Source: Woeseiaceae bacterium (GTDB lineage Bacteria > Pseudomonadota > Gammaproteobacteria > Steroidobacterales > Woeseiaceae). Taken from it: a stretch of DNA of 64,000 nt. The stretch spans positions 150-64,149 of the forward strand of contig JBFGFX010000001.1 in NCBI GenBank assembly GCA_041579335.1, written 5' to 3'. Under the pieces are notes generated by a model, which was not told the origin of the DNA, ran no database searches, and saw only the letters and a program-made list of their open reading frames with translations. Every line of letters begins with the position of its first letter. The stretch's first letter is position 1. The position numbers were made by a program, and so were the translations under genes. Positions 21,353 to 60,278 of this stretch are shown here, in pieces.

Positions 21353-22013
21353 CGATCCCTCCCGACTCGAGCTGATGGAGCTCTCTGGCGATGACGGGGA
21401 CCCAAGCCGCGGTGCTGGTCGCAAGGATATTGCCGATCGCCTGCGACGATACGGTCGCGCCCGTGATGCCGTCGATCTGCCAAGCCTCCGTTTTTTTCCC
21501 CGCCTTGACGGTCTCGATCGGATGCGCGAGCGCATCGCCCGTTGCGTCCAGGCCGACGTCGAGCGCCTCGAAGTTGGCGAGGAAATCGGCATCGGACTCG
21601 ATCTTGTCGCCCAAGCCCGGCGTCTCCTTGCTCGCGAGGACTCGCACACCGACGATCGCCTCGCGGGCCGGCGCATATCCGTACAGCAGGCTGATCGTGT
21701 CGGCATAGCCCATGCCACTGGCCTCGACTGCCACGCCGACCAGACGACCGCTGTCGTCGAAACCGGCGTGAACGCGTTCGCCGGCCGGGCCCGTCGCAGG
21801 CTCGAGGCTTCCGTCCGCGGTCAGGGTAAACGTCGCGCGGCGACTCGCATCCGGCAGTACTGCGAACACCGCCCGCTCGAGGAATGCCGCGCGATTGCGC
21901 TCGATGACCGGGAGCGTCCCCTGATACGCGACGGCGATCAGCAGACCGCACAGCATGCCGATGCCCACGAGCGCGCGGTACATAGGCCAGGTCGGCTGCG
22001 CGCCGCTGGTCAC
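21339..22013 (-). CDS. rnfG: Rnf complex subunit G (FMN-binding)
   Basis: Track ORF of 224 aa with an N-terminal TM helix. It has the flavinylation-type motif IDGITGATVSS. A GTGA overlap links it to the rnfD stop. Confidence 0.85.
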   Translation of the reverse strand: MTSGAQPTWPMYRALVGIGMLCGLLIAVAYQGTLPVIERNRAAFLERAVFAVLPDASRRATFTLTADGSLEPATGPAGERVHAGFDDSGRLVGVAVEASGMGYADTISLLYGYAPAREAIVGVRVLASKETPGLGDKIESDADFLANFEALDVGLDATGDALAHPIETVKAGKKTEAWQIDGITGATVSSQAIGNILATSTAAWVPVIARELHQLESGGIDAGN

Positions 22014-29296: not shown

Positions 29297-29307
29297 CGAA
29301 TCTTCCT

Positions 29308-38300: not shown

Positions 38301-38722
38301 AAATAGACCAGCAGCCCGTCGCCCATGGACCGGCCGATGTTTCCGCCCGAGTCAGCGATAACCTCCGAACAGCATTCCTGAAAGGCAATGATGATCTTGC
38401 GAAGATCGTCACGGTCGTATCGCACGGAGAGAGCGGTAGAGCCTACCAGGTCGCAGAACATCACGGTCAACTGTCGCTGTTCTGCGTGCGCCGTCTCGAT
38501 CTGCGTCGTCGCGCGGGTCGAATCGCGCAGCGCCTTTTGGGGGCAGCTCGACGCGATCGACTTTAGGATTCTTTTGCGGTGCCCTAAGGAGACACCAATG
38601 TCGGCGAGGTCCCGATCGGAGAGATCGGGAAGGACATCCATGTCGATGTCATGGTCTTCGAAGCAGTCGGCGTATTTTTCCAGGCCAAGTTCGTTGAGCC
38701 ACGTCCGTAATTCTTTGCTCAT
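35345..38722 (-). CDS. SAM domain - class III adenylate/guanylate cyclase - AAA/STAND ATPase - TPR multidomain signalling protein
   Basis: Track ORF 35345..38968, start re-set to MSKELRTWLNELGLEKYADCF (SAM; ATG 38722). The cyclase domain shows RQLTVMFCDLVGSTALS ... GVATGEVIAGD, followed by the P-loop LLKGEPGIGKSR and a long TPR region. Confidence 0.85.
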   Translation of the reverse strand: MSKELRTWLNELGLEKYADCFEDHDIDMDVLPDLSDRDLADIGVSLGHRKRILKSIASSCPQKALRDSTRATTQIETAHAEQRQLTVMFCDLVGSTALSVRYDRDDLRKIIIAFQECCSEVIADSGGNIGRSMGDGLLVYFGYPVASEYDPEKAIRAGLEVVNAVSALEVLPGLKLETRVGVATGEVIAGDVIQSGLTLERTVMGATPNLAARLQSHAAPDTVVVSDQTRRLAGGLFEYEDLGLLTLSGFDEPVHAWGVKREAIVESRFEATHAYISLTHVVGRDSELDLLNRVKDRSIDGRGHAVLLKGEPGIGKSRMTIAIRNAFAKLPHTLLRYYCTPYQQNSALISVIGQLERAAGFSADDDPGTRLRKLERSLQRHTGVEPDIVPLYATLLSLPTEDSYAPLNLSPRLFRDSIFRCVLSQLEDLARDAPVLMIFEDLHWVDPTTRQLLGLIVDRIRTLPVMLVMTARPEFESSWPESACTPLELQRLTAHESRAVVERVCGGKSLPQEVLEQIIVKSDGIPLFVEELTKTVIASGLLAESDEEYFLTEAAPEISIPNTLQDSLMARLDQLSEAKEVAQIGAAIGREFSYEFLAAICSLDRGELIRALGQLITAQLITGRGEPPESTYEFRHALIRDAAYFTMLREQRRELHREVAAQIERKVSETGQVRPALLAHHYTQSGDTLTAIHYWLDAGKLAKERAAHLEAVRHLNTALGMLSDVPDDRTRLQLELELQIALGPNLEATFGYSAEQVEETYKRAHELSEQLGQTTELVPILLGLYVFHLVRGELGAARSLAEQCVRLAEDGDQVDYLIEACAALGFSLCYSGEFEQSRLVLERCVSLYEAHGDDKFVPVTAQHPAVASLALLPLVLWQLGLPDRSADCLGTAFSLAERLEHPINFALIHTHAAQLYQVWGEPEKALEHAQLGMQIAAEHGYDIWHLACTMHLGIAKSTLGETAEGIPLVENGLNAWLSAGAAINKSYYLAGIAEAEREAERPRQSLELLDQAFESIHSNGEYYFESYIRHIRGLTNLACDPPRTADAQADFEEAIRLARAHGASMIEIRATNSLVGLLLAQNRGAELAAARQSLHTLYSGFAEGLQTPDLLEAERHISQPRPAAD

Positions 38723-38786: not shown

Positions 38787-41240
38787 ATGCATATGGAATG
38801 GTGCGACGTGGGACGAACGAGAAACAGTCTATCAACTCCGGCATTGGCCCAGGCCGTATGTGGCTTAATCGCGACGTTTTCCCTGGCGAATCCCACTGTT
38901 TTCGCGCAGACGAACGACGATGACGACAGCTTCGATGCCGAGATCACCAAGACGCTCGAGGAGATCATCGTCAGGGCCGAGAAGCGTTCGAATCAAGTCG
39001 TTCAGGATCTGCCGCTCGCCATTTCGGTGCTGACGGAAGAGACGATCCGTCATTCCGGGATGGAGACGATCATGCGTCTGACCGACCTGCATCCGAGCGT
39101 GTTCTTCGATCAGGCCCACAGCTTTCAGAACTCCAGTCTCAAAGTGCGCGGTATTGGCACATTTGGTAACGGCCGCACATTTGAGGGTGCCGTGGGCGTG
39201 TTTACGGACGGCGTCTACCGGACGAGATCCGGCATGGCGTTGTCGGAGCTCTTAGACGTCGACAACGTGCAGGTACTGCGCGGTCCGCAGGGGACCCTGT
39301 TCGGCAAGAACACGGTGGCCGGCGCCATTTCGCTCGAGAGTGTGAGTCCCGATCCGAACGAGGTGTCGGGATTTGCGGAAGCGCGCGCCGGCAATCTGGA
39401 TACGCAGTACCTGACCGCTGCGGTCAACGTCCCGGTGGGCAACGACTCGGCGTTGCGGCTGGCCGGTGTCATGCACCAGCGAGACGGCTCGATCGTGAGC
39501 CCCGACAACGACGACCAGTACAACAGCGTCGATCGCTACGGGCTGAAGGCCCAGTACCTGTACAGCCCCCATGACGGGCTCGAGGCCTGGATCATCGCCG
39601 ACCATGCGGAGTCCGATGCCGAATGCTGCTGGGCGACGGCGAACGTGTTCAACGGACCGACGGCGCCGCTGATCGAGACGTATGCGGGCTTGAACGGCCT
39701 GACCTTCGTGCAGCCGCCGGTGGCCGAACGCGAGCGGTTGCAGTCCTTGAACACGCTGCCGACGGAGGAGGTCGAGGACTCGGGGCTGACCGCGATCGTG
39801 CGCTGGGAGCTCGGCGAGTCATCCCTGCGATCGATCTCCGCCTACCGGCGCTGGGAGCACCGTCACGTCGAAGCGGATCCGGACTTTGTTGCGGCCGACC
39901 TGTTCATCCTGAACGAACCAACGGAAATCACCACGCTGTCGCAGGAGTTCAACTGGTCGTTGCCGCTGGGTCCGATGGAGACGGCCGGCGAATCGGATCT
40001 GCTATTGGGCGCCTATTTCGCGAAAGAGGACTTCGAGAGCACGCGCTCCGCAGAGACCGGTGCAGACGCCGACAACTACTTGAACGCTCTGGTGAGCGCT
40101 GGCCAAGGCGCCGTCGCCTGCCTGCCGCCCGTGGTTGCGGCCGACTGTCTGTTTCCGGTCGGCATCGGTGCGCTGCTGCCCGACGGCGAGTTTACGAGAG
40201 AGTTCTATTTCCAGGACACGACTACCTACGCGCTGTTCGCGCATGCGCGATGGGATTTCAGCAGCGATGCGCGACTCGTCACCGGAATCAGGTACAGCAT
40301 CGAGGACAAGGACGGCGGCGTCGACAATCTTTTCTGGTACGACTCGGCCATCGTCCGTGCCGCACTCGAAGCCGCCGGCATACCCGACGACGGCACGCCG
40401 CGGAACGGACTCGATCTGATCGGCACCGTGTACAGTCCGTCGTTCGTCGATGAAACGGAGGACAGGGAAGTCACTGGCACGATTTCCTTTCAATACTACG
40501 GCATTCCCGACGTGATGATGTTCGTTGGCTTCCGCCGAGGCTACAAAGCTGGCGGCGTCAATCTGTTCCGCGAAGGCGTGGTGTCGAATACGACCACCTA
40601 CGAACCGGAGTTCGTCGACCACTTCGAAGCGGGGCTCAAGGCGGACTACTGGGCGAACAAAGCGAGAACGAATGTTGCGGTGTTCCATTCGACGTTCACG
40701 GATCTGCAGTTCAACTTCTTCACCGGCCTCGAGTTCCGCACCGAGAATACCGGCGAGGCGACGTCCAAGGGCGTCGAGCTGGAGAATCAGTTTCAGGTTA
40801 CCGACGAGCTCCGGCTCGACCTGTCCGTGACCTACCTGGATTCGCAGTTCGATCAGTTGAACAACCCGTTCCTGTCCTATCTGGACGGTCGCGATACGCC
40901 AAGAGCGCCGCGCTGGGCCGGGATCGCGTCGCTCTTCTACGAGCTGCCGCTCGGCAATGGCCTCAACCTTTTCGCGCGGGGAATGGGCTCGTACACGGGC
41001 AGTCATTTCGTCGGCGCGGATGTGCCGAACGAACAGAAGGTTGACAGCTATGTCATCGCCGACGCGAACCTCGGCATTCGACGCGACGACGGCAGCTGGG
41101 AGATTATGGCCTGGTGCCGCAACTGCGGCGACGAGACATATAGGACGATCTTCTTCAATTCGACCTTCCAGCCAGGGTCGTTCACGACCTATCTGAATAA
41201 CCCCCGCCTGTACGGTGTCTCGTTGCGCTACGCGTTTTGA
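38787..41240 (+). CDS. TonB-dependent receptor
   Basis: Track ORF of 817 aa. It has a signal peptide, a plug domain (IIVRAEKRS ... LKVRGIG ... VQVLRGPQGTLFGKNTVAGAISL) and the C-terminal YGVSLRYAF. Confidence 0.9.
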   Translation: MHMEWCDVGRTRNSLSTPALAQAVCGLIATFSLANPTVFAQTNDDDDSFDAEITKTLEEIIVRAEKRSNQVVQDLPLAISVLTEETIRHSGMETIMRLTDLHPSVFFDQAHSFQNSSLKVRGIGTFGNGRTFEGAVGVFTDGVYRTRSGMALSELLDVDNVQVLRGPQGTLFGKNTVAGAISLESVSPDPNEVSGFAEARAGNLDTQYLTAAVNVPVGNDSALRLAGVMHQRDGSIVSPDNDDQYNSVDRYGLKAQYLYSPHDGLEAWIIADHAESDAECCWATANVFNGPTAPLIETYAGLNGLTFVQPPVAERERLQSLNTLPTEEVEDSGLTAIVRWELGESSLRSISAYRRWEHRHVEADPDFVAADLFILNEPTEITTLSQEFNWSLPLGPMETAGESDLLLGAYFAKEDFESTRSAETGADADNYLNALVSAGQGAVACLPPVVAADCLFPVGIGALLPDGEFTREFYFQDTTTYALFAHARWDFSSDARLVTGIRYSIEDKDGGVDNLFWYDSAIVRAALEAAGIPDDGTPRNGLDLIGTVYSPSFVDETEDREVTGTISFQYYGIPDVMMFVGFRRGYKAGGVNLFREGVVSNTTTYEPEFVDHFEAGLKADYWANKARTNVAVFHSTFTDLQFNFFTGLEFRTENTGEATSKGVELENQFQVTDELRLDLSVTYLDSQFDQLNNPFLSYLDGRDTPRAPRWAGIASLFYELPLGNGLNLFARGMGSYTGSHFVGADVPNEQKVDSYVIADANLGIRRDDGSWEIMAWCRNCGDETYRTIFFNSTFQPGSFTTYLNNPRLYGVSLRYAF

Positions 41241-43420
41241 CGAGCGACGACGACAACAAGCCGATCAAGGTAGCGGTGGTCGGCGGCGGCTGTGCCTCGA
41301 TCGCCGCGGCCTTCGAGCTGTCGCGCCCGGAGCATGCCGGTAAGTACGAGGTGACCGTCTATCAGCTGGGCTGGCGTCTCGGTGGCAAGGGCGCGTCCGG
41401 TCGCGGCGCCGCCGATCGGATCGAGGAGCACGGGCTGCACGTGTGGCTGGGTTTCTACGAGAATGCCTTTCGTCTGATGCGCGAGTGCTACGCGGAGCTG
41501 GGCCGCGACCCGAGTGTCTGCCCGATCGCGGACTGGCGGGATGCGTTTTTTCCGGATCCGTGCGTTGGCATGGCGGACGTCGGCAGGGACGGCCGTTGGC
41601 TGCAGTGGACGGCGATGTTTCCATCCGCGAGAGGTCTCCCGGGCGACTCGCTCAGCGAACACAACCCGTTCACGATAATGGGCTACGTCAGTCGTACGAT
41701 CGCATTGCTGAAGACGCTGCTGACCGGGGTCACGACTCATCGCGACGCCGACACGGCTTCTCCGGACGTTGCGGTCGAGGTGCCGAGCGGCGGTGCTCGA
41801 CTATCGGCCCGCGAGGTCAGCTCGATCGTCAATCGCCTGCTGAAGATCGTGGCGCTCGGCGCTACGGCCGGCATCATCGAGGCGCTGGCGGTGGCGGAGG
41901 TGCTGATTCGCACGGGCTCGAAGGATTCGTCGAATACGGTCGTCAAGCTCCTGCAGGAAATCGCTCGGTCCGTCCGTGACAGCCTCGAGCGTTTGTTCGA
42001 TGAAAACGACGAAGTCCGCTACAAATGGGAGATCATCGACCTGGTCATCGCGATACTCGTCGGCATCATTCGCGAAGGCCTGATCGCCGATCCCCGAGGA
42101 TTCGACGCGATCGACGATCAGGAATGCCGTCAATGGTTGCTCGACAACGGGGCGTCGCCCAAGTCGGTCGATTCGGCGTTCGTCCGCGGGCTTTTCGATC
42201 TCGCGATGGCCTATCCCGGCGGTGACTTCGAACGGCCGGCGCTGGCGGCAGGGCAGGCGATACGCGGATCCCTGCGCATGTTCTTTACCTACCGGGGCGC
42301 CATGTTCTGGAAGATGCGCGCCGGCATGGGCGACGTCGTGTTCGCGCCGTTTTACGAAGTGTTGAAGAAGCGGGGCGTGCGATTCGAATTTTTTCATCGG
42401 CTCGAAAACGTAAGGCTGTCGGCCCCTCGGGAGCTTGTGCCCGGTGACGGGCCGCACGTCACGGCGCTCGAGTTCGACGTTCAGGCTACGACGAAGAATG
42501 GTGATGAGTACGATCCGTTGGTCGACGTGGACGGCCTGCCGTGCTGGCCGGCGAGGCCCGACTACGACCAGCTCTTGGGCGGTGATCGGATCGAAGCAGA
42601 GGGCTGGCGTTTCGAGTCGTTCTGGGATCGCAATCGAGTGGCCGGCAAGACGCTGCGCGTCGGCGAGGACTTCGACTTCGTCGTCTTGGGCGTCGGAATC
42701 GGCGCCATCCCACACGTCTGCTCGGAGCTCGTCGACCGCGATGAACGCTGGCGTGCGATGGTCGAGCACGTCAAGACCGTGCCGAGCCAGGCGTTTCAGA
42801 TCTGGCTCCGAGAGGACCTCGAGACCTTGGGCTGGCCGGACCCGCCGCCGACGATCTCGGCGTTTGCGAAGCCGTTCGACACCTGGAGTGACATGACCCA
42901 TCTCGTCGAGCAAGAGTCCTGGACGGCCAAGCCGGGCGCGATCGCCTATTTCTGCAGCGCGCTCGGCGACGGCGTCGATACGAGCCGGCGCGCCGACGAT
43001 GGCTATCCACGGCGTCGCGAGCGCGAGGTTCGGGCGAATGCGGTTCGTTTCCTCGAGGAGAACATCAAGCACTTGTGGCCGAATGCGGTCGATGGCGACG
43101 GCCGGTTTCGCTGGGAGCTCCTGATGGACCCGGCCGATCCGCTGCGGCAGCGACACGGTGCTGAAGCTTTCGACAGCCAGTTTTGGACCGCCAACGTCGA
43201 CCCGTCGGATCGATACACGCTCGCGCCGCCCGGCAGCATCAAATACCGGATATCGCCTTTGGATAACACATATGACAATTTGACCATCGCCGGCGATTGG
43301 ACGGCCTGCGGCTTCAACGAAGGCTGCGTCGAGGCCGCGATCATGTCGGGTCGCCTGGCGGCGCACGCCTTGAGCAAAAGACCGGCATTGGCCGCGATCA
43401 TAGGCTATGATCATCCTTAG
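41237..43420 (+). CDS. large FAD/NAD(P)-binding oxidoreductase, amine-oxidase/phytoene-desaturase superfamily (COG3349-like)
   Basis: Track ORF of 727 aa with a TTG start that overlaps the receptor's TGA. It has the Rossmann motif KVAVVGGGCASIAAAFELS, then LGGKGASGR and the C-terminal NLTIAGDWTACGFNEGCVEAAIMSGRLAA. Confidence 0.8.
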   Translation: MTSDDDNKPIKVAVVGGGCASIAAAFELSRPEHAGKYEVTVYQLGWRLGGKGASGRGAADRIEEHGLHVWLGFYENAFRLMRECYAELGRDPSVCPIADWRDAFFPDPCVGMADVGRDGRWLQWTAMFPSARGLPGDSLSEHNPFTIMGYVSRTIALLKTLLTGVTTHRDADTASPDVAVEVPSGGARLSAREVSSIVNRLLKIVALGATAGIIEALAVAEVLIRTGSKDSSNTVVKLLQEIARSVRDSLERLFDENDEVRYKWEIIDLVIAILVGIIREGLIADPRGFDAIDDQECRQWLLDNGASPKSVDSAFVRGLFDLAMAYPGGDFERPALAAGQAIRGSLRMFFTYRGAMFWKMRAGMGDVVFAPFYEVLKKRGVRFEFFHRLENVRLSAPRELVPGDGPHVTALEFDVQATTKNGDEYDPLVDVDGLPCWPARPDYDQLLGGDRIEAEGWRFESFWDRNRVAGKTLRVGEDFDFVVLGVGIGAIPHVCSELVDRDERWRAMVEHVKTVPSQAFQIWLREDLETLGWPDPPPTISAFAKPFDTWSDMTHLVEQESWTAKPGAIAYFCSALGDGVDTSRRADDGYPRRREREVRANAVRFLEENIKHLWPNAVDGDGRFRWELLMDPADPLRQRHGAEAFDSQFWTANVDPSDRYTLAPPGSIKYRISPLDNTYDNLTIAGDWTACGFNEGCVEAAIMSGRLAAHALSKRPALAAIIGYDHP

Positions 43421-43548
43421 CGAATAAACGACCGTAATAACAACGACATCCTGCGCCGGACCGACGTCGAACCATCCTTGCTGACGATCTACGTCGAGCT
43501 CGAGCGACGTAGCGCTCTGCCGTCGAGCCGGAAACGGGAACGACAAAT

Positions 43549-44307
43549 ATGACAAGACGCGTGCGTCGAGAACCGCCGGAGCGATCGGCGCCCATACGGA
43601 ACTGGAGCACGCTCTTTCGGCACTCGGACTCTTGGAATATGGAAATGGACGGCGATCCCTCGAAGTCGAAAGACGACAGCCGAGACCGGCGTAGCTTCGA
43701 AAGCGTCGCATCGGATGCGGTCGCGAAGGGCTACAAGGTCATCGAGGAACAGATTCGTCAAGGTCAACAGTTCGCCCGCGATTTCGCCGATCGCTCGCTC
43801 GACGCCGGCGTGCTCAGCGGCGACACGTCCGATCTGATAGAGCGCATCATGACCTTCTATACCGACCTGGGCGCGCTCTGGTTCGAGATGATCGAGTCGC
43901 TCGCGCGCAACCCGGCACTGCGAGATCTCATGCCGAATCGCCGTAACAACGGTGCGGACGGTCCCACGAACGGCGCCGGCAACGGAACCGGTCACGCAAG
44001 TATCCCGGTCGAGATCGTATCGCCGGTGCGGACGGACGTTAAGATGATACTGGATCTTCAGAGTCTGTCGGCCGGCGGAGCACCGGGCGTTCATGAGCTG
44101 CGGTCATTGGATTCGGCGAAGCCGCCCATCCGGAACGTCGTATTTGACCCGGGCACGGACAGCTGGAGTCCCGTCCTGCGGGTTACGATCGAACAGGGTC
44201 AACCGGCCGACACATATACGGGCGTCATCATCGACACGGCCACCAACGAACCGCTCGGAACGCTCTGTATTCGAATCGCCGACGCAGAGCCCAGAGATTT
44301 CCGCTAG
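43549..44307 (+). CDS. hypothetical protein (no recognised domain)
   Basis: Track ORF of 252 aa with coding-like composition. An alternative start is ATG 43639. Only 3 nt separate it from the downstream polyprenyl synthase gene. Confidence 0.6.
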   Translation: MTRRVRREPPERSAPIRNWSTLFRHSDSWNMEMDGDPSKSKDDSRDRRSFESVASDAVAKGYKVIEEQIRQGQQFARDFADRSLDAGVLSGDTSDLIERIMTFYTDLGALWFEMIESLARNPALRDLMPNRRNNGADGPTNGAGNGTGHASIPVEIVSPVRTDVKMILDLQSLSAGGAPGVHELRSLDSAKPPIRNVVFDPGTDSWSPVLRVTIEQGQPADTYTGVIIDTATNEPLGTLCIRIADAEPRDFR

Positions 44308-44310
44308 ACC

Positions 44311-45345
44311 ATGAGTACGGCGGTCACCCCCGATCTGGTACCGAACGTACTGCGCGAATACGGCGACATCACCAAGACCGTTCTCAAAGGCTATATTCCT
44401 TCGCAGCACCCGCACCGGCATCTGTACGATCTGCTGGCGGACTACCCGCAACGCGGCGGCAAGATGATGCGGCCGAGCCTTTGCATAGCTACGGCGCGCG
44501 CGTTCGGGGCCAAGCTGGAGGACGCCCTCAATACCGCGGTCGCCATCGAGCTGCTGCACAATGCGCTTTTGATTCACGACGATATCGAGGACGACAGCGA
44601 AGAGCGACGCGGCAGCCCGACCCTGCACGTGCTCCACGGCGTGCCGCTGGCGATCAATGCCGGTGATACGCTGAGCCTACTGAGCCTGCGGCCGCTGATC
44701 GAGAACAAAGCCAAAGTCGGGCCCAGACTGGCACTGCGCATCCTCGAAGAAACCGAATGCATGGCGCGAAAGTCGGCGGAGGGGCAGGCCATGGAGCTGG
44801 GCTGGAGACGCGACAATGTGACCGAGCTCGACGAGTCCGACTATCTCGAAATGGTGCTCAAGAAGACGTGCTGGCTCGCGGCTATCTATCCGAGCCGCGT
44901 AGGGGCGATGATCGGCACGCGCGACAACGTCGAGTTGGACCCGTTCATTCGCTTCGGTTTCTTCCTGGGTGCTGCGTTTCAAATTCAGGACGATCTGCTG
45001 AACCTGGTCGCCGATGCACGTTACGGTAAAGAGCTGGACGGCGACATCTGGGAAGGCAAGCGTACGCTGATGCTGATTCGACTGTTCAGCTTGGCGGCAC
45101 CGAGGGAGCGTGAGCGTCTCACGGCGATCATGCGGCTCGCGCGCGAGGAGCGAACCGAAGAGGAGGTCAGCTGGATACGCGCGCTGATGGATCGCTACGG
45201 CTGCGTTGACTATGCGCGCCAGTTCGCCCATGGCCTGGCCGGTGCGGCGCTGCACGAGTTCTCGCTCATCTACCGCGACGTGCCTGATTCGCGAGACAAG
45301 CGCTTCATCGAAGGGCTCGTCACCTGGGTGTTCGAAAGAACCTAG
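44311..45345 (+). CDS. polyprenyl diphosphate synthase (trans-isoprenyl diphosphate synthase family)
   Basis: Track ORF of 344 aa. The first Asp-rich motif is LLIHDDIEDDSEERRG and the second is FQIQDDLLN. Confidence 0.9.
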   Translation: MSTAVTPDLVPNVLREYGDITKTVLKGYIPSQHPHRHLYDLLADYPQRGGKMMRPSLCIATARAFGAKLEDALNTAVAIELLHNALLIHDDIEDDSEERRGSPTLHVLHGVPLAINAGDTLSLLSLRPLIENKAKVGPRLALRILEETECMARKSAEGQAMELGWRRDNVTELDESDYLEMVLKKTCWLAAIYPSRVGAMIGTRDNVELDPFIRFGFFLGAAFQIQDDLLNLVADARYGKELDGDIWEGKRTLMLIRLFSLAAPRERERLTAIMRLAREERTEEEVSWIRALMDRYGCVDYARQFAHGLAGAALHEFSLIYRDVPDSRDKRFIEGLVTWVFERT

Positions 45346-45367
45346 TCGCCGAGGCGGGGAACGATCG

Positions 45368-47917
45368 ATGTCAAACGGGTATACGGACGACGGCAGCTCG
45401 AGGCGCGGCGACGCGTCGAACGACGGCGACACGGCGGAGTTCGTCGACTATCTCAACAAGGAGATGTACCAGGAGCAGCGCAAGCTGCGCTTGGCGTTCA
45501 CCGGGGTCACGGCGCGCGCTTTCCCCCTCAAAGCGAGCCTGAACCGGCTGCAAGACTTCTGCGACAGCTATCTGAATTTCGCGGACGACACCGGTAGGCG
45601 GCCTCCGTACTACTTCAAACCGGCGATCCCGTTCGTTTATTTGCAGATGATCAACTACGGCGAGATGGCGACGCTGACGGAGAACCTGGGGTTCATCTCG
45701 CAGCACGAAGTGCTGTTTGCGGTGCCGGTCGAGTGGTACGACGTCGACAGGAATACCGGCAAGCTGAAGTTCCGAGACTGGGCGCTGGTATGCCCGTACG
45801 TGTTCGTGGATAACGACATGTCGCTGCGCACGGGGCGGCAGGTGTACGGTTGGACCAAAGTACGCGCCTGGCTCAATCGCGTCGAGCCGTCCTGGACGGA
45901 CGACCCGCGGAACCGGCGCCAGCTGATGGAGTTGAAAACGAAGCTGTTCTTGACGGCCTACTCCGGCCAACGCATCGAGCCTCGGGTCCTGCTCGAGATC
46001 GTTCAGGATCCGCCGCCGAGCGTCTTCCGCAATCCGTACAGCAAGCGCGACCTGTTCAATCCGCTGTGGACCTGGCCGCAGGCCGTGCGCGAGTCGATGA
46101 TGGCGGTGGGCGATACGCTCGAATTTTTGACCGCATTACCGATTCTCGGCTATGACCAGGCACGCTTCGCCCCCGTGTTGCCGGAGATGATGCGGCGCGG
46201 CATCGACAACACGCGGCGGTTCCTGCCGTGGGTGTCCTGCAGAGACCCGTACCAAAAGGAAGTGCTGGAGCGGGCCAAGCACAATCCGTACATCAATCAG
46301 ATCACGCTCAAGCAGTTCCGCGATGCGGCTGAGCCGACGCTGGCGTGCTATCAGGCCTACGTGAACTCGAAGATCTTGATCGATCACTACCACGACGGCG
46401 GCCTGCTCGGCGGCCCGAACCTGTTTCTGGGTGACCTCACCGCCGGATTTCGCGTCCTGGTGCACGACTACGCCGAACAGAAGATCGTGCACACGCTCGG
46501 CATCGAGATTTCGGAGACGGAGAAGGACGCACACGGCAAAGACGTGTTGGTGCTGACGCCGAGGTTGCCGTTCTGGACTTCGCTGGACCTCCGCTACGAT
46601 GAGGGCGAGCTGCTGCACTGGCGCTCCAAGACCTCGGATTGGACGCAAGGCAAAGAGACGCAAGCGGTCGCGAGAGGAGAGCAGAGGAACTGCTTCAACG
46701 TGACCCGCGGCGCCGCAATCCAGGAGTTGTTCGGGCCCTTCAACTTTCCGGACATCACCGTGCGGGTGCTGCCGCTCGCGGCAAAGACCGATCAGCTACA
46801 ACGGTTCTGTGACAGATACTTGAACAATCTGATCCAGGACAAATCGGCGGAGGGCCGCGTCGCGGATCTGCCGCGCTCGCAGACCGATATCGATCGGATG
46901 TTCAAGAGCCAACGCTTCACGCCGTGGGGCGATCACGTCTTTCTGCTCGTGACGAGCTACGGCGGCAAGCACGGCGCCGGCTACTCGGAATCCAATGACA
47001 TCGGCCAGATCGAGCAGGAGAAGGTCTCGTTCTACGTGCCGGCGGAATGGACCTTCGAAGACGACCAGGGCGCGAAGAGGAAGCGTCCCTGCCTGCTTGC
47101 TCCTTGGGTCTTCAACAGCTCCAGCCGGCATGCGATCACGGAAAGGGAGGTCAACGGGGTCGAGGCACACCACGCGGTCATACACTGCGACGACGCAAGC
47201 TGGCTCAAGGAGTCGGGGCCGGTTGCCGAACGCCTGCTCATGTCTCTGAAGCGCCTGATGATGATCGGGGCGAACGCGGGCCAGGAGGCCGACATGCGCA
47301 CGCTCATCGAAATAAGGCAGGACGGCCAATATCCCGCGCACGGCCGGCGCCGCGATGCGCACCGGGACGAGGAATGCCCCGACATCAAGGACATGATCCG
47401 GTATCTCGGCAGTTCGGTCGACTTCGTCTCGCTCAAGCAGTTCCCGAAGTCCGGCAACTTCGACAACTCGTGTTATCAAGCGTTCGTGATGGTCAAGCGC
47501 AGAATCACCCATATCTTCGATCATCGTCGCGACCGGATGCGCGAGTCGTATGCGGAGGGCGACAGGTTCAAGTTCGCGGTCGCGGAGCCGATGGGCGACG
47601 ACCTGCGCGTCTCGATACAGCGGCATCTGTACTGGCCGATCGTCGAGAATCTCGGTCTCCGATACGAGACGCTCGACTGCAAGCCGGGCGAGCTGCCGGT
47701 CTACCAGATCAGACCCGAGCGTCCGTTCTTCCTGCGTCTGGGACTGAGAGAAGAGGTCGGGATGAACCTCTGGACCCGCACGCACGGCACCAAGTGGCAG
47801 CGGGAGCAGCAAGGCATCGAGGAGCTTCACCGAGACGTGACGTTCCCGACGGCGACGCCGATGCAGATGATCCACAGCATGCTCAACTGCCTGGAGGAGC
47901 TCGGCTCCGACGACTAG
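45368..47917 (+). CDS. 849-aa protein with two tandem acetoacetate-decarboxylase(ADC)-like domains
   Basis: Track ORF 45206..47917, start re-set to MSNGYTDDG (ATG 45368). The upstream part overlaps the polyprenyl synthase gene. Domain 1 has AFPLKASLNRLQDFCDSYLNF, TGRQVYGWTK and TLKQFRDAAEPTLACYQ. Domain 2 has VLPLAAKTDQLQRFCDRYLNN, TEREVNGVEA and SLKQFPKSGNFDNSCYQ. The fold was assigned by eye against the ADC pattern. Confidence 0.7.
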   Translation: MSNGYTDDGSSRRGDASNDGDTAEFVDYLNKEMYQEQRKLRLAFTGVTARAFPLKASLNRLQDFCDSYLNFADDTGRRPPYYFKPAIPFVYLQMINYGEMATLTENLGFISQHEVLFAVPVEWYDVDRNTGKLKFRDWALVCPYVFVDNDMSLRTGRQVYGWTKVRAWLNRVEPSWTDDPRNRRQLMELKTKLFLTAYSGQRIEPRVLLEIVQDPPPSVFRNPYSKRDLFNPLWTWPQAVRESMMAVGDTLEFLTALPILGYDQARFAPVLPEMMRRGIDNTRRFLPWVSCRDPYQKEVLERAKHNPYINQITLKQFRDAAEPTLACYQAYVNSKILIDHYHDGGLLGGPNLFLGDLTAGFRVLVHDYAEQKIVHTLGIEISETEKDAHGKDVLVLTPRLPFWTSLDLRYDEGELLHWRSKTSDWTQGKETQAVARGEQRNCFNVTRGAAIQELFGPFNFPDITVRVLPLAAKTDQLQRFCDRYLNNLIQDKSAEGRVADLPRSQTDIDRMFKSQRFTPWGDHVFLLVTSYGGKHGAGYSESNDIGQIEQEKVSFYVPAEWTFEDDQGAKRKRPCLLAPWVFNSSSRHAITEREVNGVEAHHAVIHCDDASWLKESGPVAERLLMSLKRLMMIGANAGQEADMRTLIEIRQDGQYPAHGRRRDAHRDEECPDIKDMIRYLGSSVDFVSLKQFPKSGNFDNSCYQAFVMVKRRITHIFDHRRDRMRESYAEGDRFKFAVAEPMGDDLRVSIQRHLYWPIVENLGLRYETLDCKPGELPVYQIRPERPFFLRLGLREEVGMNLWTRTHGTKWQREQQGIEELHRDVTFPTATPMQMIHSMLNCLEELGSDD

Positions 47918-47951
47918 GCCTGCCCGTCGTCTCTCACGCTTCGCCGAACCG

Positions 47952-50216
47952 ATGAGCCACCCAGCGAACAACTCGAACGGCATCGTCATCGTCGCGGGAG
48001 CCGGGATCTGCGGCTTGGCAACCGCGCTTGCCGTCGCCTCCCGGGGGCGCCGCGTCCACGTCCTGGAGGCGCGGCACGATCCGGACGACGCCCGCGGACG
48101 GGGACTTTTGGCAACCGCCGATCGGCTCGTCGAGCGCGCCAACCGGACGCTGGTCAGGGGCGAGGGCGGGTCGGCCGACGAGCTGTTCGAACGCGCCGCG
48201 GCGGCGAGGAACGCGGTGTGGGGCTCACGGCTCCGCAATCTGCTGTTCGACCACCATTCCGTGGGCTTTCTCTCGAAACTGGGCGTGGACATGCGCTCGT
48301 TGCCGCGGCTACGGCAACTGGACACGCACCTCGGACCCGGGCAGCCGAGCATCTTCATCCGCTACGGCGATCGCGAGTCTGGAACCGGCAACGGGCGACT
48401 GGATGCCGCCACCCTGATCGCGCAGCGCGATCCGGTGGTCGCCGCCTCGATCGGCGACGTGGAGCGAGTCCTGCGGCGCGCCGTCGACCGCAATCCGAAC
48501 GTCGTCCTCTCCTACGACGCGCCGGCGGTGTCCATTCGCCAGCACGATGCGGGCGTGTCGGTCGACTATGGCCGTCGGGGCATCGACACGCTGCGCGGCT
48601 CACTACTCGTGATTGCCGACGGCGGCGGCCGTCGCTCGTTGAGCCGCCGGCTCGGTATCGGTCGCATAGACGTCGGCTACGAAGCGATGAACATCGCGGC
48701 GTTTCAGTGCGATCCGGATGCGGAGCTGCTGGGCCACAGGCTCGACGAGGCGTGGCTCGACGCACGCACGACTGAGCAGGGCTGGGTGGTATTTCTGAAC
48801 AGCGGCGCCGGCCGCCTCACCGTGAATACGCGCAGGGTGGTCGGCGCCGATGCGCCTACCGCGCTGGAGCTGGCCATCGACAGCGGGGCGGCAGCACCGC
48901 TGGCGGACAAACCGGCGGACGTCCGCTACGCGTTGGATCGCGCGGAGCGGGTCGTCGACGGCGACGCGACGGTCCTAGTCGGTGACGCCGCCTGCCGGGC
49001 GTCGCCAATTTGGGCGTTCGGAGCGCAGTTCGGGCTGCTCTGGGCGCAGATGGTCGCAGACCTGATCGGCGACTCCGTCGGCCCCGGGGGTCCGCCCAGC
49101 CTCGAATCGTTGCGGCTGTTTGCCGACGAGGCGGAACGCGTATCGAAGATGCGTCTCGAGTTCGAGTCGTCGGTCATCAAGCTCGTCGACCTGGCCAACG
49201 CCAACGTGCGTAGCGTGTCGGACATCACGATGTCGCAGAATCTGGTTGCGGCGGTCGATCGAATCGAGCTGAACTTCGAGGCGGCCGGGCCCACGGGCGG
49301 TCGGATGGCGCTCAAGCTCGGCGTCGACCTCGACCGACTGATCAGCGCCAGCGACAAGCCGGATCTCGCCGCCTTCTGCGCCGCCGTAGGCCGTTTCAAC
49401 GTGGAGGGCCTGCTGAACCTGCATTACGACGGCGACGGCGGCGGCGCTGCGTCGTCGAGCGAGGCACAGCCGCTCGACTATCGGACGAATCTCGAGCGGG
49501 TCCGGCTGCAGGGCGGCAATCTGACGGTGCGGCGCGTCGACGCAGGCTATTGGACGTTCTGCATGCGCGGCGTAGACCTGCACCGCAACGTCGATAAATC
49601 CGGCAGCGCCTCGGTCGCGGCGATCGAACGGGCGGAGCTGAGGCTACCGGATGCGTTCGTCACCGAAGTCCTGCAGCGCATGGGGCCGCAGCTTTGGGCA
49701 CTAGGCGCTACCAAGCACCGCCCGATGCGTTTCGAGTTCGAGCTCGAGCCCGGCAAACTCGAGCTCGGCGACTTCGAGCTGCGCCTGTCCGGAGCGCCGC
49801 TCGTGTGCATGATACTGAGCCGCCGGCGGGGCAGCTCGCACTTCCGTTTCCAGCTCTTGCGAGGCAGCGCGGTGAGTCGGAACTTCTCCGCGGTCGTAAG
49901 GAACACGAGGCTCGGAGCCACCCGTGTGCTGCGGGCAGGGCAGTCCGTGTTCGGCCGGATTGCGGACCCGTTCATCGATTGGTGGGCCTCGGGCGCGTCC
50001 ATCATGATACGGCGCGTCGATTTTACGATGAACGCGAACGGCTCGGGCAAAGCGACGTACTACTTCCTGGGCGTGCCCTTCCCGGTGCGGATGAACAAGG
50101 ACGACGTCGAGCAGCTGATTGCCGGGCTGTTCCGCTCGGAGAGCTGTGAGCGCATCATGCGTCAGTATCAAACCAGCGTGCGCGCGGCGCGAATCTCGCC
50201 CACGACGCCACCATGA
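47952..50216 (+). CDS. FAD-dependent monooxygenase-like protein (about 400 aa) fused to a C-terminal region of about 350 aa of unknown function
   Basis: Track ORF of 754 aa. It has IVIVAGAGICGLATALAVASRGRRVHVLEAR (GxGxxG), LLVIADGGGRRS and VLVGDAACRASPIWAFGAQFG (GDAA-type). Confidence 0.75.
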   Translation: MSHPANNSNGIVIVAGAGICGLATALAVASRGRRVHVLEARHDPDDARGRGLLATADRLVERANRTLVRGEGGSADELFERAAAARNAVWGSRLRNLLFDHHSVGFLSKLGVDMRSLPRLRQLDTHLGPGQPSIFIRYGDRESGTGNGRLDAATLIAQRDPVVAASIGDVERVLRRAVDRNPNVVLSYDAPAVSIRQHDAGVSVDYGRRGIDTLRGSLLVIADGGGRRSLSRRLGIGRIDVGYEAMNIAAFQCDPDAELLGHRLDEAWLDARTTEQGWVVFLNSGAGRLTVNTRRVVGADAPTALELAIDSGAAAPLADKPADVRYALDRAERVVDGDATVLVGDAACRASPIWAFGAQFGLLWAQMVADLIGDSVGPGGPPSLESLRLFADEAERVSKMRLEFESSVIKLVDLANANVRSVSDITMSQNLVAAVDRIELNFEAAGPTGGRMALKLGVDLDRLISASDKPDLAAFCAAVGRFNVEGLLNLHYDGDGGGAASSSEAQPLDYRTNLERVRLQGGNLTVRRVDAGYWTFCMRGVDLHRNVDKSGSASVAAIERAELRLPDAFVTEVLQRMGPQLWALGATKHRPMRFEFELEPGKLELGDFELRLSGAPLVCMILSRRRGSSHFRFQLLRGSAVSRNFSAVVRNTRLGATRVLRAGQSVFGRIADPFIDWWASGASIMIRRVDFTMNANGSGKATYYFLGVPFPVRMNKDDVEQLIAGLFRSESCERIMRQYQTSVRAARISPTTPP

Positions 50217-51199
50217 ACGTCCTCGTGCTCGGCGCTACCGGCTTGATCGGCAATGCGGTCGTGCGCGAGCTGCTTGCCCGCGGCCATACCGTGACGGCGA
50301 CGGGGCGTCGACCTGGGCCGACCGTGAACCTGACCGGGCTGGACGTCCGCTACCGGGCGGGCGACGTCGACCGGCCCGGACAGTTGGACGAATGGTTCGC
50401 GGGCCAAGACGCGATTGTCGATGCGGCCGCGCCGTACGCGCTGCATCTCGCTCGTCGAGCGGACGGTGGGGCGCAGCAACGCAGCGATGCCGTCGCGCGG
50501 CGCACTGATGCCATGTTGAGCGCGGTGCACCGGCACGGTCCGAAGCTCGTTTACATCAGCACGCTGACGAGCGAGTCGCCGAGTCGGAGCGTGCTTCCGC
50601 AGAGCATCCAGAAGCGCCTGATGCGCGAGGTGCACCCGTATTTCAGGCTCAAACGACGGATCGAGAATCACATGCTGGATGCTGCCTCGCAGGGGCTGCC
50701 GGTGACCGTGGTCCGTCCGTCGGCCTGCGTCGGGCCGTGGGACGTCAAGCCGCGCGGTCAGTGCTGGGTGCCGGCGCTCTTGAACGGAGAGATCTCCATC
50801 ACGGTCCAGCACAGGGTCAACGTCATCGACACGCGTGACGTCGCGAGAGGGATCGCGGCGCTCGTCGAGCATGCGCATGCCGAGAAACCGATCTCCCTCA
50901 TCGGTCACAACACCTCGGTCAAGGCGCTGTTTGCCGATTTCTGCGAAATCGGTCGCGCCCAACGACCGCGTTGGCAGATTCCGGCGGCGTTGACGGTCCT
51001 GCCGTCGCTTTGGGCGGAGCTGGCCTGGGCCAGCATCGGCCGCGAGTCCCCGCTGCCCTCGATCGTGCCGATGCTGATTTGCGAGCAGCAATGGCGGAAG
51101 CCGAGCGTCGAGCAGCAGCAGCTTGGGGCTGCGCCGAGGCCGCTTCAGGAAACGGCACGAGACACGATCGCCTGGTACAGGCGCCTGGGATACTGCTGA
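50213..51199 (+). CDS. NAD-dependent epimerase/dehydratase family (extended SDR) protein
   Basis: Track ORF of 328 aa. It begins MNVLVLGATGLIGNAVVRELLARGHTV. An ATGA overlap links it to the upstream gene. Confidence 0.85.
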   Translation: MNVLVLGATGLIGNAVVRELLARGHTVTATGRRPGPTVNLTGLDVRYRAGDVDRPGQLDEWFAGQDAIVDAAAPYALHLARRADGGAQQRSDAVARRTDAMLSAVHRHGPKLVYISTLTSESPSRSVLPQSIQKRLMREVHPYFRLKRRIENHMLDAASQGLPVTVVRPSACVGPWDVKPRGQCWVPALLNGEISITVQHRVNVIDTRDVARGIAALVEHAHAEKPISLIGHNTSVKALFADFCEIGRAQRPRWQIPAALTVLPSLWAELAWASIGRESPLPSIVPMLICEQQWRKPSVEQQQLGAAPRPLQETARDTIAWYRRLGYC

Positions 51200-51219
51200 G
51201 GATGTGCGATCCGAGGGCG

Positions 51220-51456
51220 TTATTTGCCAGCGGCGGGATCGGCAGGTTCTTTAGATGTGGGGGGGCACGGCTTGCAGTCTTCGATCGCCTTGTTGACGGC
51301 ATTCGCCCAGCTGTCGAGCGCCTGGCTGTAGCACTTGACGGGAAGCTTCACGAGCTCGCACGTCGCCTTGATGCTCGCTTCCATCGCCTGGACGAGAGAA
51401 TCTACGGTTTTGCTGCCTTCCTGCGCCGGGTGGTCTGGGCGTTCTCTTGTCGTCAT
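51220..51456 (-). CDS. small hypothetical protein (78 aa, 4 Cys)
   Basis: Track ORF. The segment SIKATCELVKLPVKCYSQALDSWANAVNKAIEDCKP resembles the C-terminal tail of the neighbouring ADC-like protein. Confidence 0.5.
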   Translation of the reverse strand: MTTRERPDHPAQEGSKTVDSLVQAMEASIKATCELVKLPVKCYSQALDSWANAVNKAIEDCKPCPPTSKEPADPAAGK

Positions 51457-51729
51457 GTCGTTCTCCGCTGGGTCTGAGCGCTGCGTGCGTCGTGAGCGAC
51501 CGGCATGCGTTTCGATTATAGGTTATACGCCGACGCGGCGGAAAAAAACCAGGCAGTTGGCGTACAATTCCAGAAGAGGCGCCGACAACAACCAGCCGGT
51601 GCGCCGCGGCGGCAAAAAAAGGCCGAGTTTTCCACCGCTTGCAACGAGAAGTGAGAATCCCGTTGATGCTCGGACCAGGATCAGAACGAGCGGCCGGCGG
51701 CGCATGGGTTCTTCGAGGACCATAAGAGC

Positions 51730-52926
51730 ATGAACGGCCCGCCCGATTTCATTCCGCAGCATCCTCCCCTGTGCGATCCGCAGATGCCCCCGCCGTATCG
51801 TTTCGAAAACGTCGGCATGCGGATATTCCTGCTGCCGGCTGCGGCCGTGCTGCTGCAGAAGGTCTGCAAGCGTTTCTTCAACGACATTGCCGTCCGCGAC
51901 AACCTCGATTTTCGCATCACCCCGATCGCCGATATCTTCGGCAACAGTCACGTCTACCTCGAAGTCCTCACGTATCCCAAGATCTACTCACTGGCGCCGA
52001 ATCACGCGCAGCTGGGTTACATCGAGCAGAACGAATTTTTCGTGTCGATACCGGTGGTTTTCGAAGATGTTTACGGGCTGCCGCTCGGCGTCGGCATGTT
52101 CGTGCCGTTCATCTTCGTCGACAAGGACTGGTCCGTCATCGCCGGCCGGGACGTCATGGGTTTTCCGAAAGGCATCGCCGAGTTCAGGGTCGACGCCGTC
52201 CCGAGCAAGATCGACGGGACCGCGGCGAAAAGCCTGGTGCTGTCGAGCTACGGTGCCGACCAGCGGGCGACAACCGAGCTGATCCTGGAGATCAACGCGG
52301 CCGACCTGAAGCTCAGCAAGGCGGCCGCGAGCCAGTCACTACAGGTCGATCCGAACGCGACGCCTATTCATGAATACTGGCCGTTCGGGCCGGTAGACGA
52401 GCTGTTCGGCGAGGGGCAGCCGCGGCAGATGGCGGACGACGTCCTCGACCTGCTCAAGCAGAGCGCCGGCGTGCAGATGGTCAACTACACGCTCAAACAG
52501 TTTCGCGACGCCGCCGAGCCGAGCAAGGCCTGTTTCCAGTCCATCCTCGAATGCAGGATGACGGTCGACGGCTTGAGCGCCGGCGGCACGTATCCCCCGC
52601 TGGACATCACGCTGCCCCGGCACGACAGCCTGGAAATCGCCAAGCGGCTGGGCATTCCGGTGACCGGCGGCGGCGTCGCCGAGCCGATATTCGGCTTCTG
52701 GTACCAGGCAGACTTCACGCTGCACGAGGCCGAGCGCCTCCACACGGTCTGCGGTGGCAAGGAAGTGGCGACGGACGCGGGTCCGACGACCAGCGACTTC
52801 GGCGTCACGGGTGACGAGTGCGACGACTCCATTCGCCGGCTGTGCAAGCTCAACCTCAAGGTCTACAAGTCCTGCCTGGATGTCTGGCTGAACACCGTCG
52901 AAGCCTGCATCGGCAAGCCGAAATAA
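51730..52926 (+). CDS. acetoacetate-decarboxylase-like family protein (single domain, 398 aa)
   Basis: Track ORF. It has PPPYRFENVGMRIFLLPAAAVLLQKVCKRFFND. AGRDVMGFPKG aligns by eye with GRELSAYPK of clostridial Adc. TLKQFRDAAEPSKACFQ is shared with the 849-aa paralog. Confidence 0.7.
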   Translation: MNGPPDFIPQHPPLCDPQMPPPYRFENVGMRIFLLPAAAVLLQKVCKRFFNDIAVRDNLDFRITPIADIFGNSHVYLEVLTYPKIYSLAPNHAQLGYIEQNEFFVSIPVVFEDVYGLPLGVGMFVPFIFVDKDWSVIAGRDVMGFPKGIAEFRVDAVPSKIDGTAAKSLVLSSYGADQRATTELILEINAADLKLSKAAASQSLQVDPNATPIHEYWPFGPVDELFGEGQPRQMADDVLDLLKQSAGVQMVNYTLKQFRDAAEPSKACFQSILECRMTVDGLSAGGTYPPLDITLPRHDSLEIAKRLGIPVTGGGVAEPIFGFWYQADFTLHEAERLHTVCGGKEVATDAGPTTSDFGVTGDECDDSIRRLCKLNLKVYKSCLDVWLNTVEACIGKPK

Positions 52927-54701: not shown

Positions 54702-54753
54702 GGCGCGAATTCTCGCCCGGCCCTGCGAGGTTGCGCAACCGACGTTCGCGGGA

Positions 54754-56310: not shown

Positions 56311-56318
56311 CCGAGTGT

Positions 56319-58785: not shown

Positions 58786-58805
58786 TTTCCCTGAGGCGTT
58801 GAGGC

Positions 58806-60269: not shown

Positions 60270-60278
60270 TCGACGGCA

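Follow-up and report, generated by a model that had tools for sequence, protein, structure and literature searches.

A recurring six-gene isoprenoid cluster joining a polyprenyl diphosphate synthase and a desaturase-like flavoprotein to acetoacetate decarboxylase-like proteins and a cyclase-STAND protein

Bacterial terpenoid gene clusters are usually recognised by a terpene synthase, a cyclase or a head-to-head synthase. The carotenoid (CrtE-CrtB-CrtI) and hopanoid (HpnCDE) routes are the described systems closest to the locus reported here, together with the acetoacetate decarboxylase (ADC) superfamily and the STAND NTPases that carry a nucleotide cyclase. True acetoacetate decarboxylases (EC 4.1.1.4) have a subunit of about 250 residues, whose nucleophilic lysine has its pKa lowered by a neighbouring second lysine (KK). 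Here we analyse a gene cluster in a stretch of 64,000 nucleotides from a Woeseiaceae bacterium (assembly GCA_041579335.1, contig JBFGFX010000001.1, positions 150 to 64,149 of the forward strand), the whole of which is referred to as the window. The core of the cluster is a six-gene module encoding a flavoprotein, an orphan protein, a polyprenyl diphosphate synthase, an ADC-like protein, a nicotinamide-nucleotide (NAD(P)) reductase and a STAND protein with a class III cyclase. It is an isoprenoid gene cluster of unprecedented composition, each of whose enzymes comes from a known superfamily. Because the module lacks the three signatures named above, a search keyed to them probably would not flag the complete pathway, and no description of the cluster or of its families turned up in full-text literature searches.

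The module was delimited by comparing 47 non-redundant loci, each with a homologue of the 849-residue ADC-like protein and at least 6 kb on either side, in which genes were counted within 9 kb. Six-frame open reading frames (ORFs) of all loci were searched iteratively with the window proteins using HMMER; as the gene calls are stop-to-stop ORFs matched in this way, the counts err on the low side for proteins that are short or divergent, the orphan among them. The flavoprotein was found in 41 of the 47 loci, the polyprenyl synthase and the orphan in 40 each, and a cyclase-STAND homologue beside the cluster in 38. About 36 loci have an NAD(P) reductase, which is a short-chain dehydrogenase/reductase (SDR) in 20 and a Rossmann protein of the Sacchrp_dh_NADP type in 16; reduction is a core function, with the latter type replacing the SDR in about half of the loci. 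Among loci carrying all three, the order flavoprotein, orphan, synthase is contiguous except in L029, L062 and L066. A further apparent family of 752 residues in 28 loci turned out to be an antisense ORF of the flavoprotein gene and was discarded as an artefact. The recurrence of this gene set across at least nine phyla, in dozens of genomes, exceeds what chance would produce, and we are highly confident that it represents a genuine conserved functional module.

A preliminary description of the locus, made from the sequence of the window alone, had proposed an uncharacterised isoprenoid-type gene cluster. That the genes form a genuine cluster holds: their co-localisation is strongly conserved across the 47 loci, and no other characterised family takes in the ADC-like ORFs. 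The boundaries that it drew have to be moved. The TonB-dependent receptor and the 754-residue monooxygenase that it included lie near the module in two loci each, a separate single ADC-like gene does so in one to three, and the 78-residue ORF had no match in any related locus, while the cyclase-STAND gene, a core member, had been left out. The other genes counted near the module encode an acyl-CoA-synthetase-like protein (8/47 loci), Crp (6/47) and FadL (4/47).

The closest locus to the window comes from an uncultured gammaproteobacterial metagenome-assembled genome (MAG), at 43% identity, with Woeseiaceae relatives at about 42%. The same neighbours surround homologues that are 32-43% identical in Thiohalocapsa sp. 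PB-PSB1, Binatia, Pseudomonadales and a Woeseiaceae-like metagenome bin, namely a flavoprotein of about 730 residues, a protein of 240-265 residues lacking a Pfam family, a polyprenyl synthase, the double ADC-like protein, an NAD(P) Rossmann reductase and a Guanylate_cyc-AAA_16-TPR protein of 1030-1116 residues. A scan of one genome per GTDB species added 80 further loci. Its proteobacterial carriers belong to the Gamma-, Beta- and Alphaproteobacteria, and others to the Myxococcota, Acidobacteriota, Binatia, Nitrospirota, Gemmatimonadota, Latescibacterota and Cyanobacteria. Cultured carriers are Rhodopila globiformis DSM 161, Polyangium fumosum DSM 14668, Methylotetracoccus oryzae C50C1, two Sulfitobacter species and Xenophilus sp. 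L33. Three loci reached through the flavoprotein instead (L088-L090) show the same gene set. In L090 a single ADC protein of 330 residues takes the place of the double one, and L088 adds Crp, a class II cyclic-nucleotide phosphodiesterase, FadL and a FAD_binding_3 enzyme.

In the window, the module and its parts lie at the following positions (FAD, flavin adenine dinucleotide).

35345-38722, minus strand: cyclase-STAND protein of 1125 residues with a SAM domain, a class III nucleotide cyclase, an AAA_16 NTPase and TPR (Pfam SAM_1, Guanylate_cyc, AAA_16, TPR)
41237-43420, plus strand: FAD flavoprotein of 727 residues, with Pfam NAD_binding_8 in its N-terminal and Amino_oxidase in its C-terminal part
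43421-43548, no strand: spacer of 128 nucleotides between the flavoprotein and orphan genes, with three copies of a CGACGTCG-type motif
43549-44307, plus strand: orphan protein of 252 residues, with neither a Pfam nor an NCBIfam family
44311-45345, plus strand: trans-polyprenyl diphosphate synthase (PF00348 polyprenyl_synt, E 2.8e-55)
45368-47917, plus strand: tandem-duplicated ADC-like protein of 849 residues (Pfam ADC at 20.1 bits, below the gathering score of 29.8)
45485-46657, plus strand: N-terminal ADC-like half of the 849-residue protein (residues 40-430), carrying K164 (codon 45857-45859)
46700-47812, plus strand: C-terminal ADC-like half of the same protein (residues 445-815), its lysine lost
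50213-51199, plus strand: extended SDR, an NAD(P) reductase/dehydrogenase (Pfam Epimerase, E 3.9e-22)

The 727-residue flavoprotein is predicted to adopt the phytoene-desaturase/amine-oxidase fold, which agrees with the desaturase-type partner for the polyprenyl synthase assumed in the preliminary description. It combines an FAD Rossmann domain (GxGxxG) with an amine-oxidase substrate domain, and its AlphaFold2 model (predicted local distance difference test, pLDDT, 73; predicted template-modelling score 0.79) matched rice phytoene desaturase (PDS; 5mog) best in Foldseek (E 5e-13, template-modelling score 0.73 on the target), followed by monoamine and putrescine oxidases, NicA2, LSD1 and oleate hydratase. 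A single-sequence search of the PDB gave nothing significant. The model also contains a helical insertion of about 200 residues (roughly residues 147-350), which PDS lacks. More than 6850 homologues were found, the best 120 of which all share 59-68% identity with it, proteins from Nitrospirota and Methylococcaceae sources among them; the JGI annotation of homologues reads 'uncharacterized protein with NAD-binding domain and iron-sulfur cluster'.

Given this fold, the cluster could encode a variant carotenoid, squalene or hopanoid route, in which the flavoprotein would be a true desaturase or an HpnE-like enzyme acting on a C30 or C40 hydrocarbon and the head-to-head synthase would either be encoded elsewhere or be replaced by the ADC-like or orphan protein. 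Such a route would account for PDS as the best structural match, for HpnE, ZDS and PDS as the best NCBIfam matches of the flavoprotein and HpnA as that of the SDR, and for the adjacent gene resembling a geranylgeranyl diphosphate (GGPP) synthase. These family scores are far below their cut-offs, however, at 61.7 against 283.05 bits for HpnE, 33 against 622 for ZDS, 19.6 against 569 for PDS and 132.8 against 367.65 for HpnA, and the insertion sets the flavoprotein apart from PDS. The preliminary description had remarked on missing classic partners, and this is borne out: no phytoene or squalene synthase (SQS_PSY), lycopene cyclase or squalene-hopene cyclase is annotated in the ten loci with Pfam annotation (L001-L007 and L088-L090, representing about eight independent places), and none of the scanned window ORFs matched SQS_PSY or a cyclase Pfam family. 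The module also occurs in pigmented and non-pigmented lineages alike, and we consider such a route quite unlikely.

By sequence the synthase appears closest to GGPP (C20) synthases, and its product is probably C20. Its nearest sequence in the PDB is the Thermus GGPP synthase 1wmw (205 bits), followed by the Pyrococcus and Geoglobus enzymes, and its best NCBIfam matches lie below cut-off (IdsA, 209 against 468 bits; GGPP_syn, 174 against 500 bits). Both Asp-rich motifs are present (LIHDDIEDD and FQIQDDLLN), and DDxxD and DD[LVI][LM]N are conserved in about 70 orthologues. The orphan gave no Pfam, NCBIfam or PDB match; a word-index search returned 29 homologues, all hypothetical or unnamed. Its AlphaFold2 model (pLDDT 72) comprises a conserved N-terminal peptide (RLRREDPxRTxPIRNW), a helical hairpin (residues 50-120), a disordered linker and a beta-sandwich (residues 154-243). 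We rejected the possibility that it is a small subunit of a HepS-like heteromeric prenyl synthase, as a helical hairpin and beta-sandwich are predicted instead of the all-alpha synthase fold. The SDR retains its cofactor motif (GATGLIGNAV) and YxxxK (YFRLK).

The 849-residue protein has more than 400 public homologues, which are hypothetical or unnamed except for one 'acetoacetate decarboxylase family protein'. Its two halves align with each other in hhalign (probability 100, E 3.7e-70, 28% identity) and share the motifs FxGVTxRVFPLxA...FCDxYLN, KQFRDA..ACYQA and PI(V/I)xxLG(L/I). In the N-terminal half, PF[IV]FVDNDxSxxxGRExYGWxK aligns to Sbi00515 (4zbo, GFPKK) and to the Chromobacterium ADC (3bgt, GFPKK), and K164, invariant in 27 sequences, aligns with the Schiff-base lysine of acetoacetate decarboxylases. 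The C-terminal half reads REVNGVEAHH at the lysine site and is probably non-catalytic; the motif GRExxG(W/F/Y)xK occurs exactly once per ORF in 90 of the 97 family ORFs of the loci. The 398-residue paralogue further downstream keeps its lysine (GFPKG, K147, codon 52168-52170) and aligns with the N-terminal halves, with Q100, E102, R140, K147, K256, Q257, D260 and C268 invariant. The preliminary description had counted three ADC-like domains: ADC-superfamily domains are indeed present, distributed over one duplicated protein, whose C-terminal half has no lysine, and one paralogue.

An exhaustive search gave 1244 representatives of the family at 50% identity, in single and double forms. At 20.1 bits the 849-residue protein itself is linked to PF06314 through relatives above the gathering score of 29.8, namely P0083 (35.1 bits), P0292 (48.3), P0352 (32.4) and P0301 (32.6). 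Single-sequence PDB searches with the 849- and 398-residue proteins gave nothing significant, and profiles recovered the lysine motif only. The long double homologues (1130-1355 residues) showed no additional known domain, and a match of 4125 residues (P0336) was a false positive caused by PKD repeats. The ADC-like domains measure 330-390 residues, and their lysine is followed by V or G (GWTKV, GFPKG) with no KK. The missing second lysine and the domain size place these proteins, as far as sequence can tell, in a divergent branch of the ADC superfamily and not among the acetoacetate decarboxylases. Thermoanaerobaculia genomes carry several double paralogues, only some of them inside a full module; their loci are L024, L025, L049 and L056, all from one MAG, and L017, L028, L048, L069 and L071.

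The sixth core protein has the domains and catalytic residues of a STAND NTPase with a class III cyclase as output (Guanylate_cyc, AAA_16 and TPR). Its cyclase domain (37934-38521, minus strand) keeps the metal-binding Asp residues (FCDLVGST, MGDG) and the Asn and Arg of the transition-state motif (PNLAARL). The nucleotide-specificity residue is Lys in adenylate cyclases and Glu in guanylate cyclases; here it is Arg (IGRSMGDG), while the best PDB match, Cya2 (2w01), has Glu, and the product could be either cyclic AMP (cAMP) or cyclic GMP (cGMP). Two natural fusions join the flavoprotein to an ADC-like domain, P0352 (1049 residues) and P0362 (1066 residues). Their flavoprotein parts are 37-39% identical to the window protein over the full length, helical insertion included, and their C-terminal ADC-like domain passes the Pfam threshold. 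In locus L091 (5809-12637), P0352 lies 4 nucleotides downstream of a Ser/Thr-kinase-AAA_16-TPR STAND protein, whose NTPase/TPR part is homologous to that of the window cyclase-STAND. From these sequences it appears that the STAND sensor is kept, together with its partners, while the output domain is exchanged, from the cyclase of most loci to the Ser/Thr kinase of L091. In the protein P0330, cyclase-AAA_16 is joined directly to an ADC-like domain, which takes the place of the TPR (L092, 194-2677); this protein is a single case on a 3-kb contig and could be an artefact of assembly or gene calling.

These arrangements could also be read as those of a signalling system, in which the enzymes make or destroy the ligand of the STAND protein and the ADC-like domains are chiefly ligand-binding or sensor modules. 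The STAND protein is a core member with an exchangeable output, P0330 links a cyclase directly to an ADC-like domain, and one ADC half is probably non-catalytic, as this explanation would have it. On the other hand, P0330 is a lone example, the Lys/Glu/Arg constellation is invariant in the other ADC half and favours catalysis, and the explanation overlaps with an isoprenoid pathway coupled to a sensor rather than excluding it. We think it improbable that signalling in this form is the main role of the module. Anti-phage defence of the STAND or Pycsar type, with the metabolic enzymes as effectors, is a far weaker candidate and in our view very improbable indeed. The cyclase domain weakly matches Pycsar (PycC) models at about 50 bits in PADLOC, and STAND NTPases are common in defence systems; yet the seven other proteins had no PADLOC match, the loci lie outside mobile or defence islands, and the 59-68% identity of the best 120 flavoprotein homologues to the window protein is unlike that of fast-evolving defence genes.

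We put at about one half the likelihood that the module encodes an undescribed pathway which makes and modifies an acyclic isoprenoid, most likely C20, and is coupled to the STAND sensor. We infer the chemistry of every step as follows. The synthase would supply a prenyl diphosphate, probably C20, and after dephosphorylation the flavoprotein would oxidise or desaturate the prenyl chain or prenol to an allylic aldehyde or conjugated carbonyl. A precedent for this second step is monoamine oxidase B (MAOB), an amine-oxidase-fold flavoprotein that oxidises geranylgeraniol to geranylgeranial (PMC7193968, PMC8880059). The lysine of the ADC-like protein could then capture the carbonyl as an imine for aldol, dehydration or decarboxylation-type chemistry, as in Sbi00515, MppR and ADC, and the reductase would fix the product. 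The orphan may act as a non-catalytic adaptor or lipid carrier between flavoprotein and synthase. The STAND protein would sense the lipid or the cue for its production via its TPR/NTPase part and report by cyclic-nucleotide synthesis. That these functions are coupled is suggested by the natural flavoprotein-ADC fusions, by the kinase-STAND gene beside one of them and by the combination of Crp, phosphodiesterase and FadL in L088. The preliminary description had also considered a prenylated polyketide-like product, and nothing points to a polyketide component.

Several observations weigh against the proposed pathway. The module has no conserved phosphatase, a NUDIX gene being adjacent only in the Binatia locus, which leaves the prenol step with no assigned enzyme. 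At position -5 relative to its first DDxxD the synthase carries Ala, as long-chain polyprenyl synthases also do, and this is compatible with products longer than C20. Only some 35-100 residues surrounding the catalytic motif resemble ADC, and the Pfam alignments extend at most over profile positions 29-128 of 238. The orphan model has no significant Foldseek relative, the best being MD-2/NPC2-like beta-sandwiches with a probability of at most 0.2. A few double-ADC paralogues, mainly in Thermoanaerobaculia, stand alone with no conserved neighbours. Finally, FadL and TonB neighbours fit uptake as well as export.

Uptake is the starting point of another explanation that we hold to be unlikely, in which the cluster serves to catabolise or remodel a hydrophobic compound of external origin, for example a carotenoid, a prenol or another lipid. 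Its course, for which we see an equally small chance, would be import by TonB or FadL, oxidation by the flavoprotein, retro-aldol cleavage or decarboxylation of a beta-keto or aldol intermediate by the ADC-like protein, and induction by the STAND protein via cAMP and Crp. TonB or FadL genes adjoin the cluster in several lineages, acyl-CoA-synthetase-like genes lie nearby in the window as well as in the eight loci mentioned, and the sensor, Crp and phosphodiesterase of L088 form a set typical of inducible catabolism. Retro-aldol and decarboxylase chemistry is, moreover, the classical activity of the ADC superfamily. Against this stands the polyprenyl synthase, a biosynthetic enzyme that belongs to the core and is encoded directly downstream of the orphan in nearly every locus. 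There are no conserved genes for beta-oxidation or other downstream catabolism, and only some 13% of loci have an outer-membrane transporter; the link to outer-membrane transport suggested in the preliminary description is thus an occasional one. In an extended form of the proposed pathway, which we offer as a speculation with little probability, the module would be a self-contained circuit: a new molecule derived from an acyclic isoprenoid, made by imine chemistry on a prenal by the duplicated ADC branch, would be the ligand of the module's own STAND protein, giving cAMP or cGMP or, in some lineages, protein phosphorylation. If true, bacteria of at least nine phyla would have a new class of pathway in this circuit, based on a terpenoid hormone or second messenger.

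The remaining genes of the cluster in the window are accessories of this lineage.

38787-41240, plus strand: TonB-dependent outer-membrane receptor with a signal peptide (Pfam Plug and TonB_dep_Rec_b-barrel)
47952-50216, plus strand: FAD monooxygenase fusion of 754 residues (FAD_binding_3 / NAD_binding_8, in the N-terminal half only)
51220-51456, minus strand: Cys-containing ORF of 78 residues, convergent with the SDR gene, its reality uncertain (no Pfam or NCBIfam match)
51730-52926, plus strand: single-domain ADC-like paralogue of 398 residues (PF06314 at 44.0 bits, above the gathering score of 29.8)

Only the closest relatives, L006/L007 and L008, have the receptor next to the cluster, and other lineages carry FadL/Toluene_X in its stead. 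Full-length homologues of the 754-residue protein adjoin the cluster only in L008 (52% identity) and L027 (31%). The Pfam and NCBIfam matches of this protein are confined to its N-terminal part and leave a C-terminal region of about 350 residues with no assignment. In L088 an unrelated FAD_binding_3 gene occupies the same position, and a proposed relationship between the C-terminal region and a 249-residue protein of L088 was rejected, the two being unrelated. A motif of the 78-residue ORF, LVKLPVKCYSQALDSWANAVNKAI, aligns without gaps to the Cys-rich C-terminal tail of the 398-residue ADC protein, LCKLNLKVYKSCLDVWLNTVEACI (52840-52911, plus strand), with 11 of 24 positions identical (pairwise E 2e-4, in a tiny search space); this may be a shared small module or docking helix.

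All nine ORFs of the preliminary description were reproduced in the ORF listing at the same coordinates, and its domain calls agree with Pfam and NCBIfam. Its account of gene spacing is likewise correct. The TTG start of the flavoprotein gene at 41237 overlaps the TGA of the receptor gene (gcgttTTGAcg, 41237-41240), gaps of 3, 22 and 34 nucleotides separate orphan from synthase, synthase from 849-residue and 849-residue from 754-residue genes, and an ATGA overlap joins the 754-residue and SDR genes. The ATG of the 849-residue gene at 45368 sits behind a Shine-Dalgarno-like GGGGA. The STAND gene is divergent from the receptor gene and starts 64 nucleotides upstream of it; its ORF is open to 38968, and we infer that M83 (MSKELRTW...) is the probable start. 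A scan of the locus for consensus promoters and terminators did no better than on shuffled sequence, so that the operon structure is based on gene spacing and synteny only. The preliminary description passed over both the divergent STAND gene and the spacer at 43421-43548, which is the only long gap inside the co-directional gene string. The three CGACGTCG-like copies in this spacer, each 8-9 nucleotides long (43462-43470, 43488-43496 and 43505-43512), can pair in two alternative hairpins. No Rfam family matched the window between 35 and 54 kb, spacer included. The spacer could be an attenuator or an operator.

Directly downstream of the cluster lies a neutral-lipid locus (53022-62084), with genes for an Omp85-like protein, an acyl-CoA synthetase, a WS/DGAT wax-ester synthase, an alpha/beta-hydrolase and a Pfam-less protein of 432 residues on the minus strand and a PlsB-like glycerol-3-phosphate acyltransferase on the plus strand. 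A functional link to the module, for instance through esterification or activation of its product, is conceivable. Upstream, the module is preceded by ordinary chromosome. This includes, all on the minus strand, an ORF of 1719 residues of the pyruvate:ferredoxin-oxidoreductase type with an extra C-terminal ferredoxin domain (24371-29530), an RnfD/NqrB-family protein with an N-terminal extension of 285 residues (22010-23860) and a DUF1800/DUF1501 pair (8524-11622). In the Binatia locus L002/L003 (3073-3609), the flavoprotein gene is immediately preceded by genes for a NUDIX hydrolase, a CoA-binding protein and a thiolase; the NUDIX enzyme could supply the dephosphorylation of the prenyl diphosphate there, its gene not being conserved in other loci.

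Three uncharacterised families meet in the module: the flavoprotein, the duplicated ADC-like family and the adaptor-like orphan. Identification of the product would give a function to thousands of hypothetical proteins, and it could reveal new isoprenoid chemistry as well as a regulatory link from a metabolite through a STAND protein to a cyclic nucleotide.

Compared with the described systems, the module shares with the CrtE-CrtB-CrtI and HpnCDE routes the pairing of a GGPP-synthase-like enzyme with a flavoprotein of PDS fold, and an HpnA-like SDR is encoded nearby. It differs from them in that the module region and the related loci contain no CrtB, HpnC, HpnD or cyclase and in that equivalog scores remain below cut-off, and it adds the flavoprotein insertion and the ADC-like, orphan and STAND-cyclase proteins. 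We know of no carotenoid or hopanoid cluster with these last three. With mammalian MAOB, which converts geranylgeraniol to geranylgeranial on the way to geranylgeranoic acid (PMC7193968, PMC8880059), the flavoprotein has in common the amine-oxidase fold, and the proposed substrate is likewise a C20 prenol derived from GGPP; the two are not specifically related in sequence, however, and monoamine oxidase structures fit the flavoprotein model less well than PDS does. The ADC superfamily, as represented by the Clostridium acetobutylicum enzyme, the Chromobacterium enzyme (3bgt/3bh3), the aldolase-dehydratase Sbi00515 (4zbo) and MppR, has the same lysine motif, (F/Y)(I/V)xVD(N/D)...GRExxG(W/F)PK. 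In the module, by contrast, the domain is mostly tandem-duplicated with one copy lacking the lysine, the invariant KQFRDA..ACYQA and PI(V/I)xxLG(L/I) motifs have no alignable counterpart in the superfamily, and the genetic context is isoprenoid instead of solventogenesis, polyketide or enduracididine. Finally, the cyclase-ATPase-TPR STAND proteins of the mycobacterial Rv0386 type and the MalT-like NTPases show the same architecture of Guanylate_cyc, AAA_16 and TPR_MalT-like domains with intact catalytic residues, whereas the protein of the module has no helix-turn-helix output, carries an N-terminal SAM domain, or a zinc ribbon in other lineages, stands in dedicated synteny with metabolic genes and, in one variant, carries a kinase as its output.

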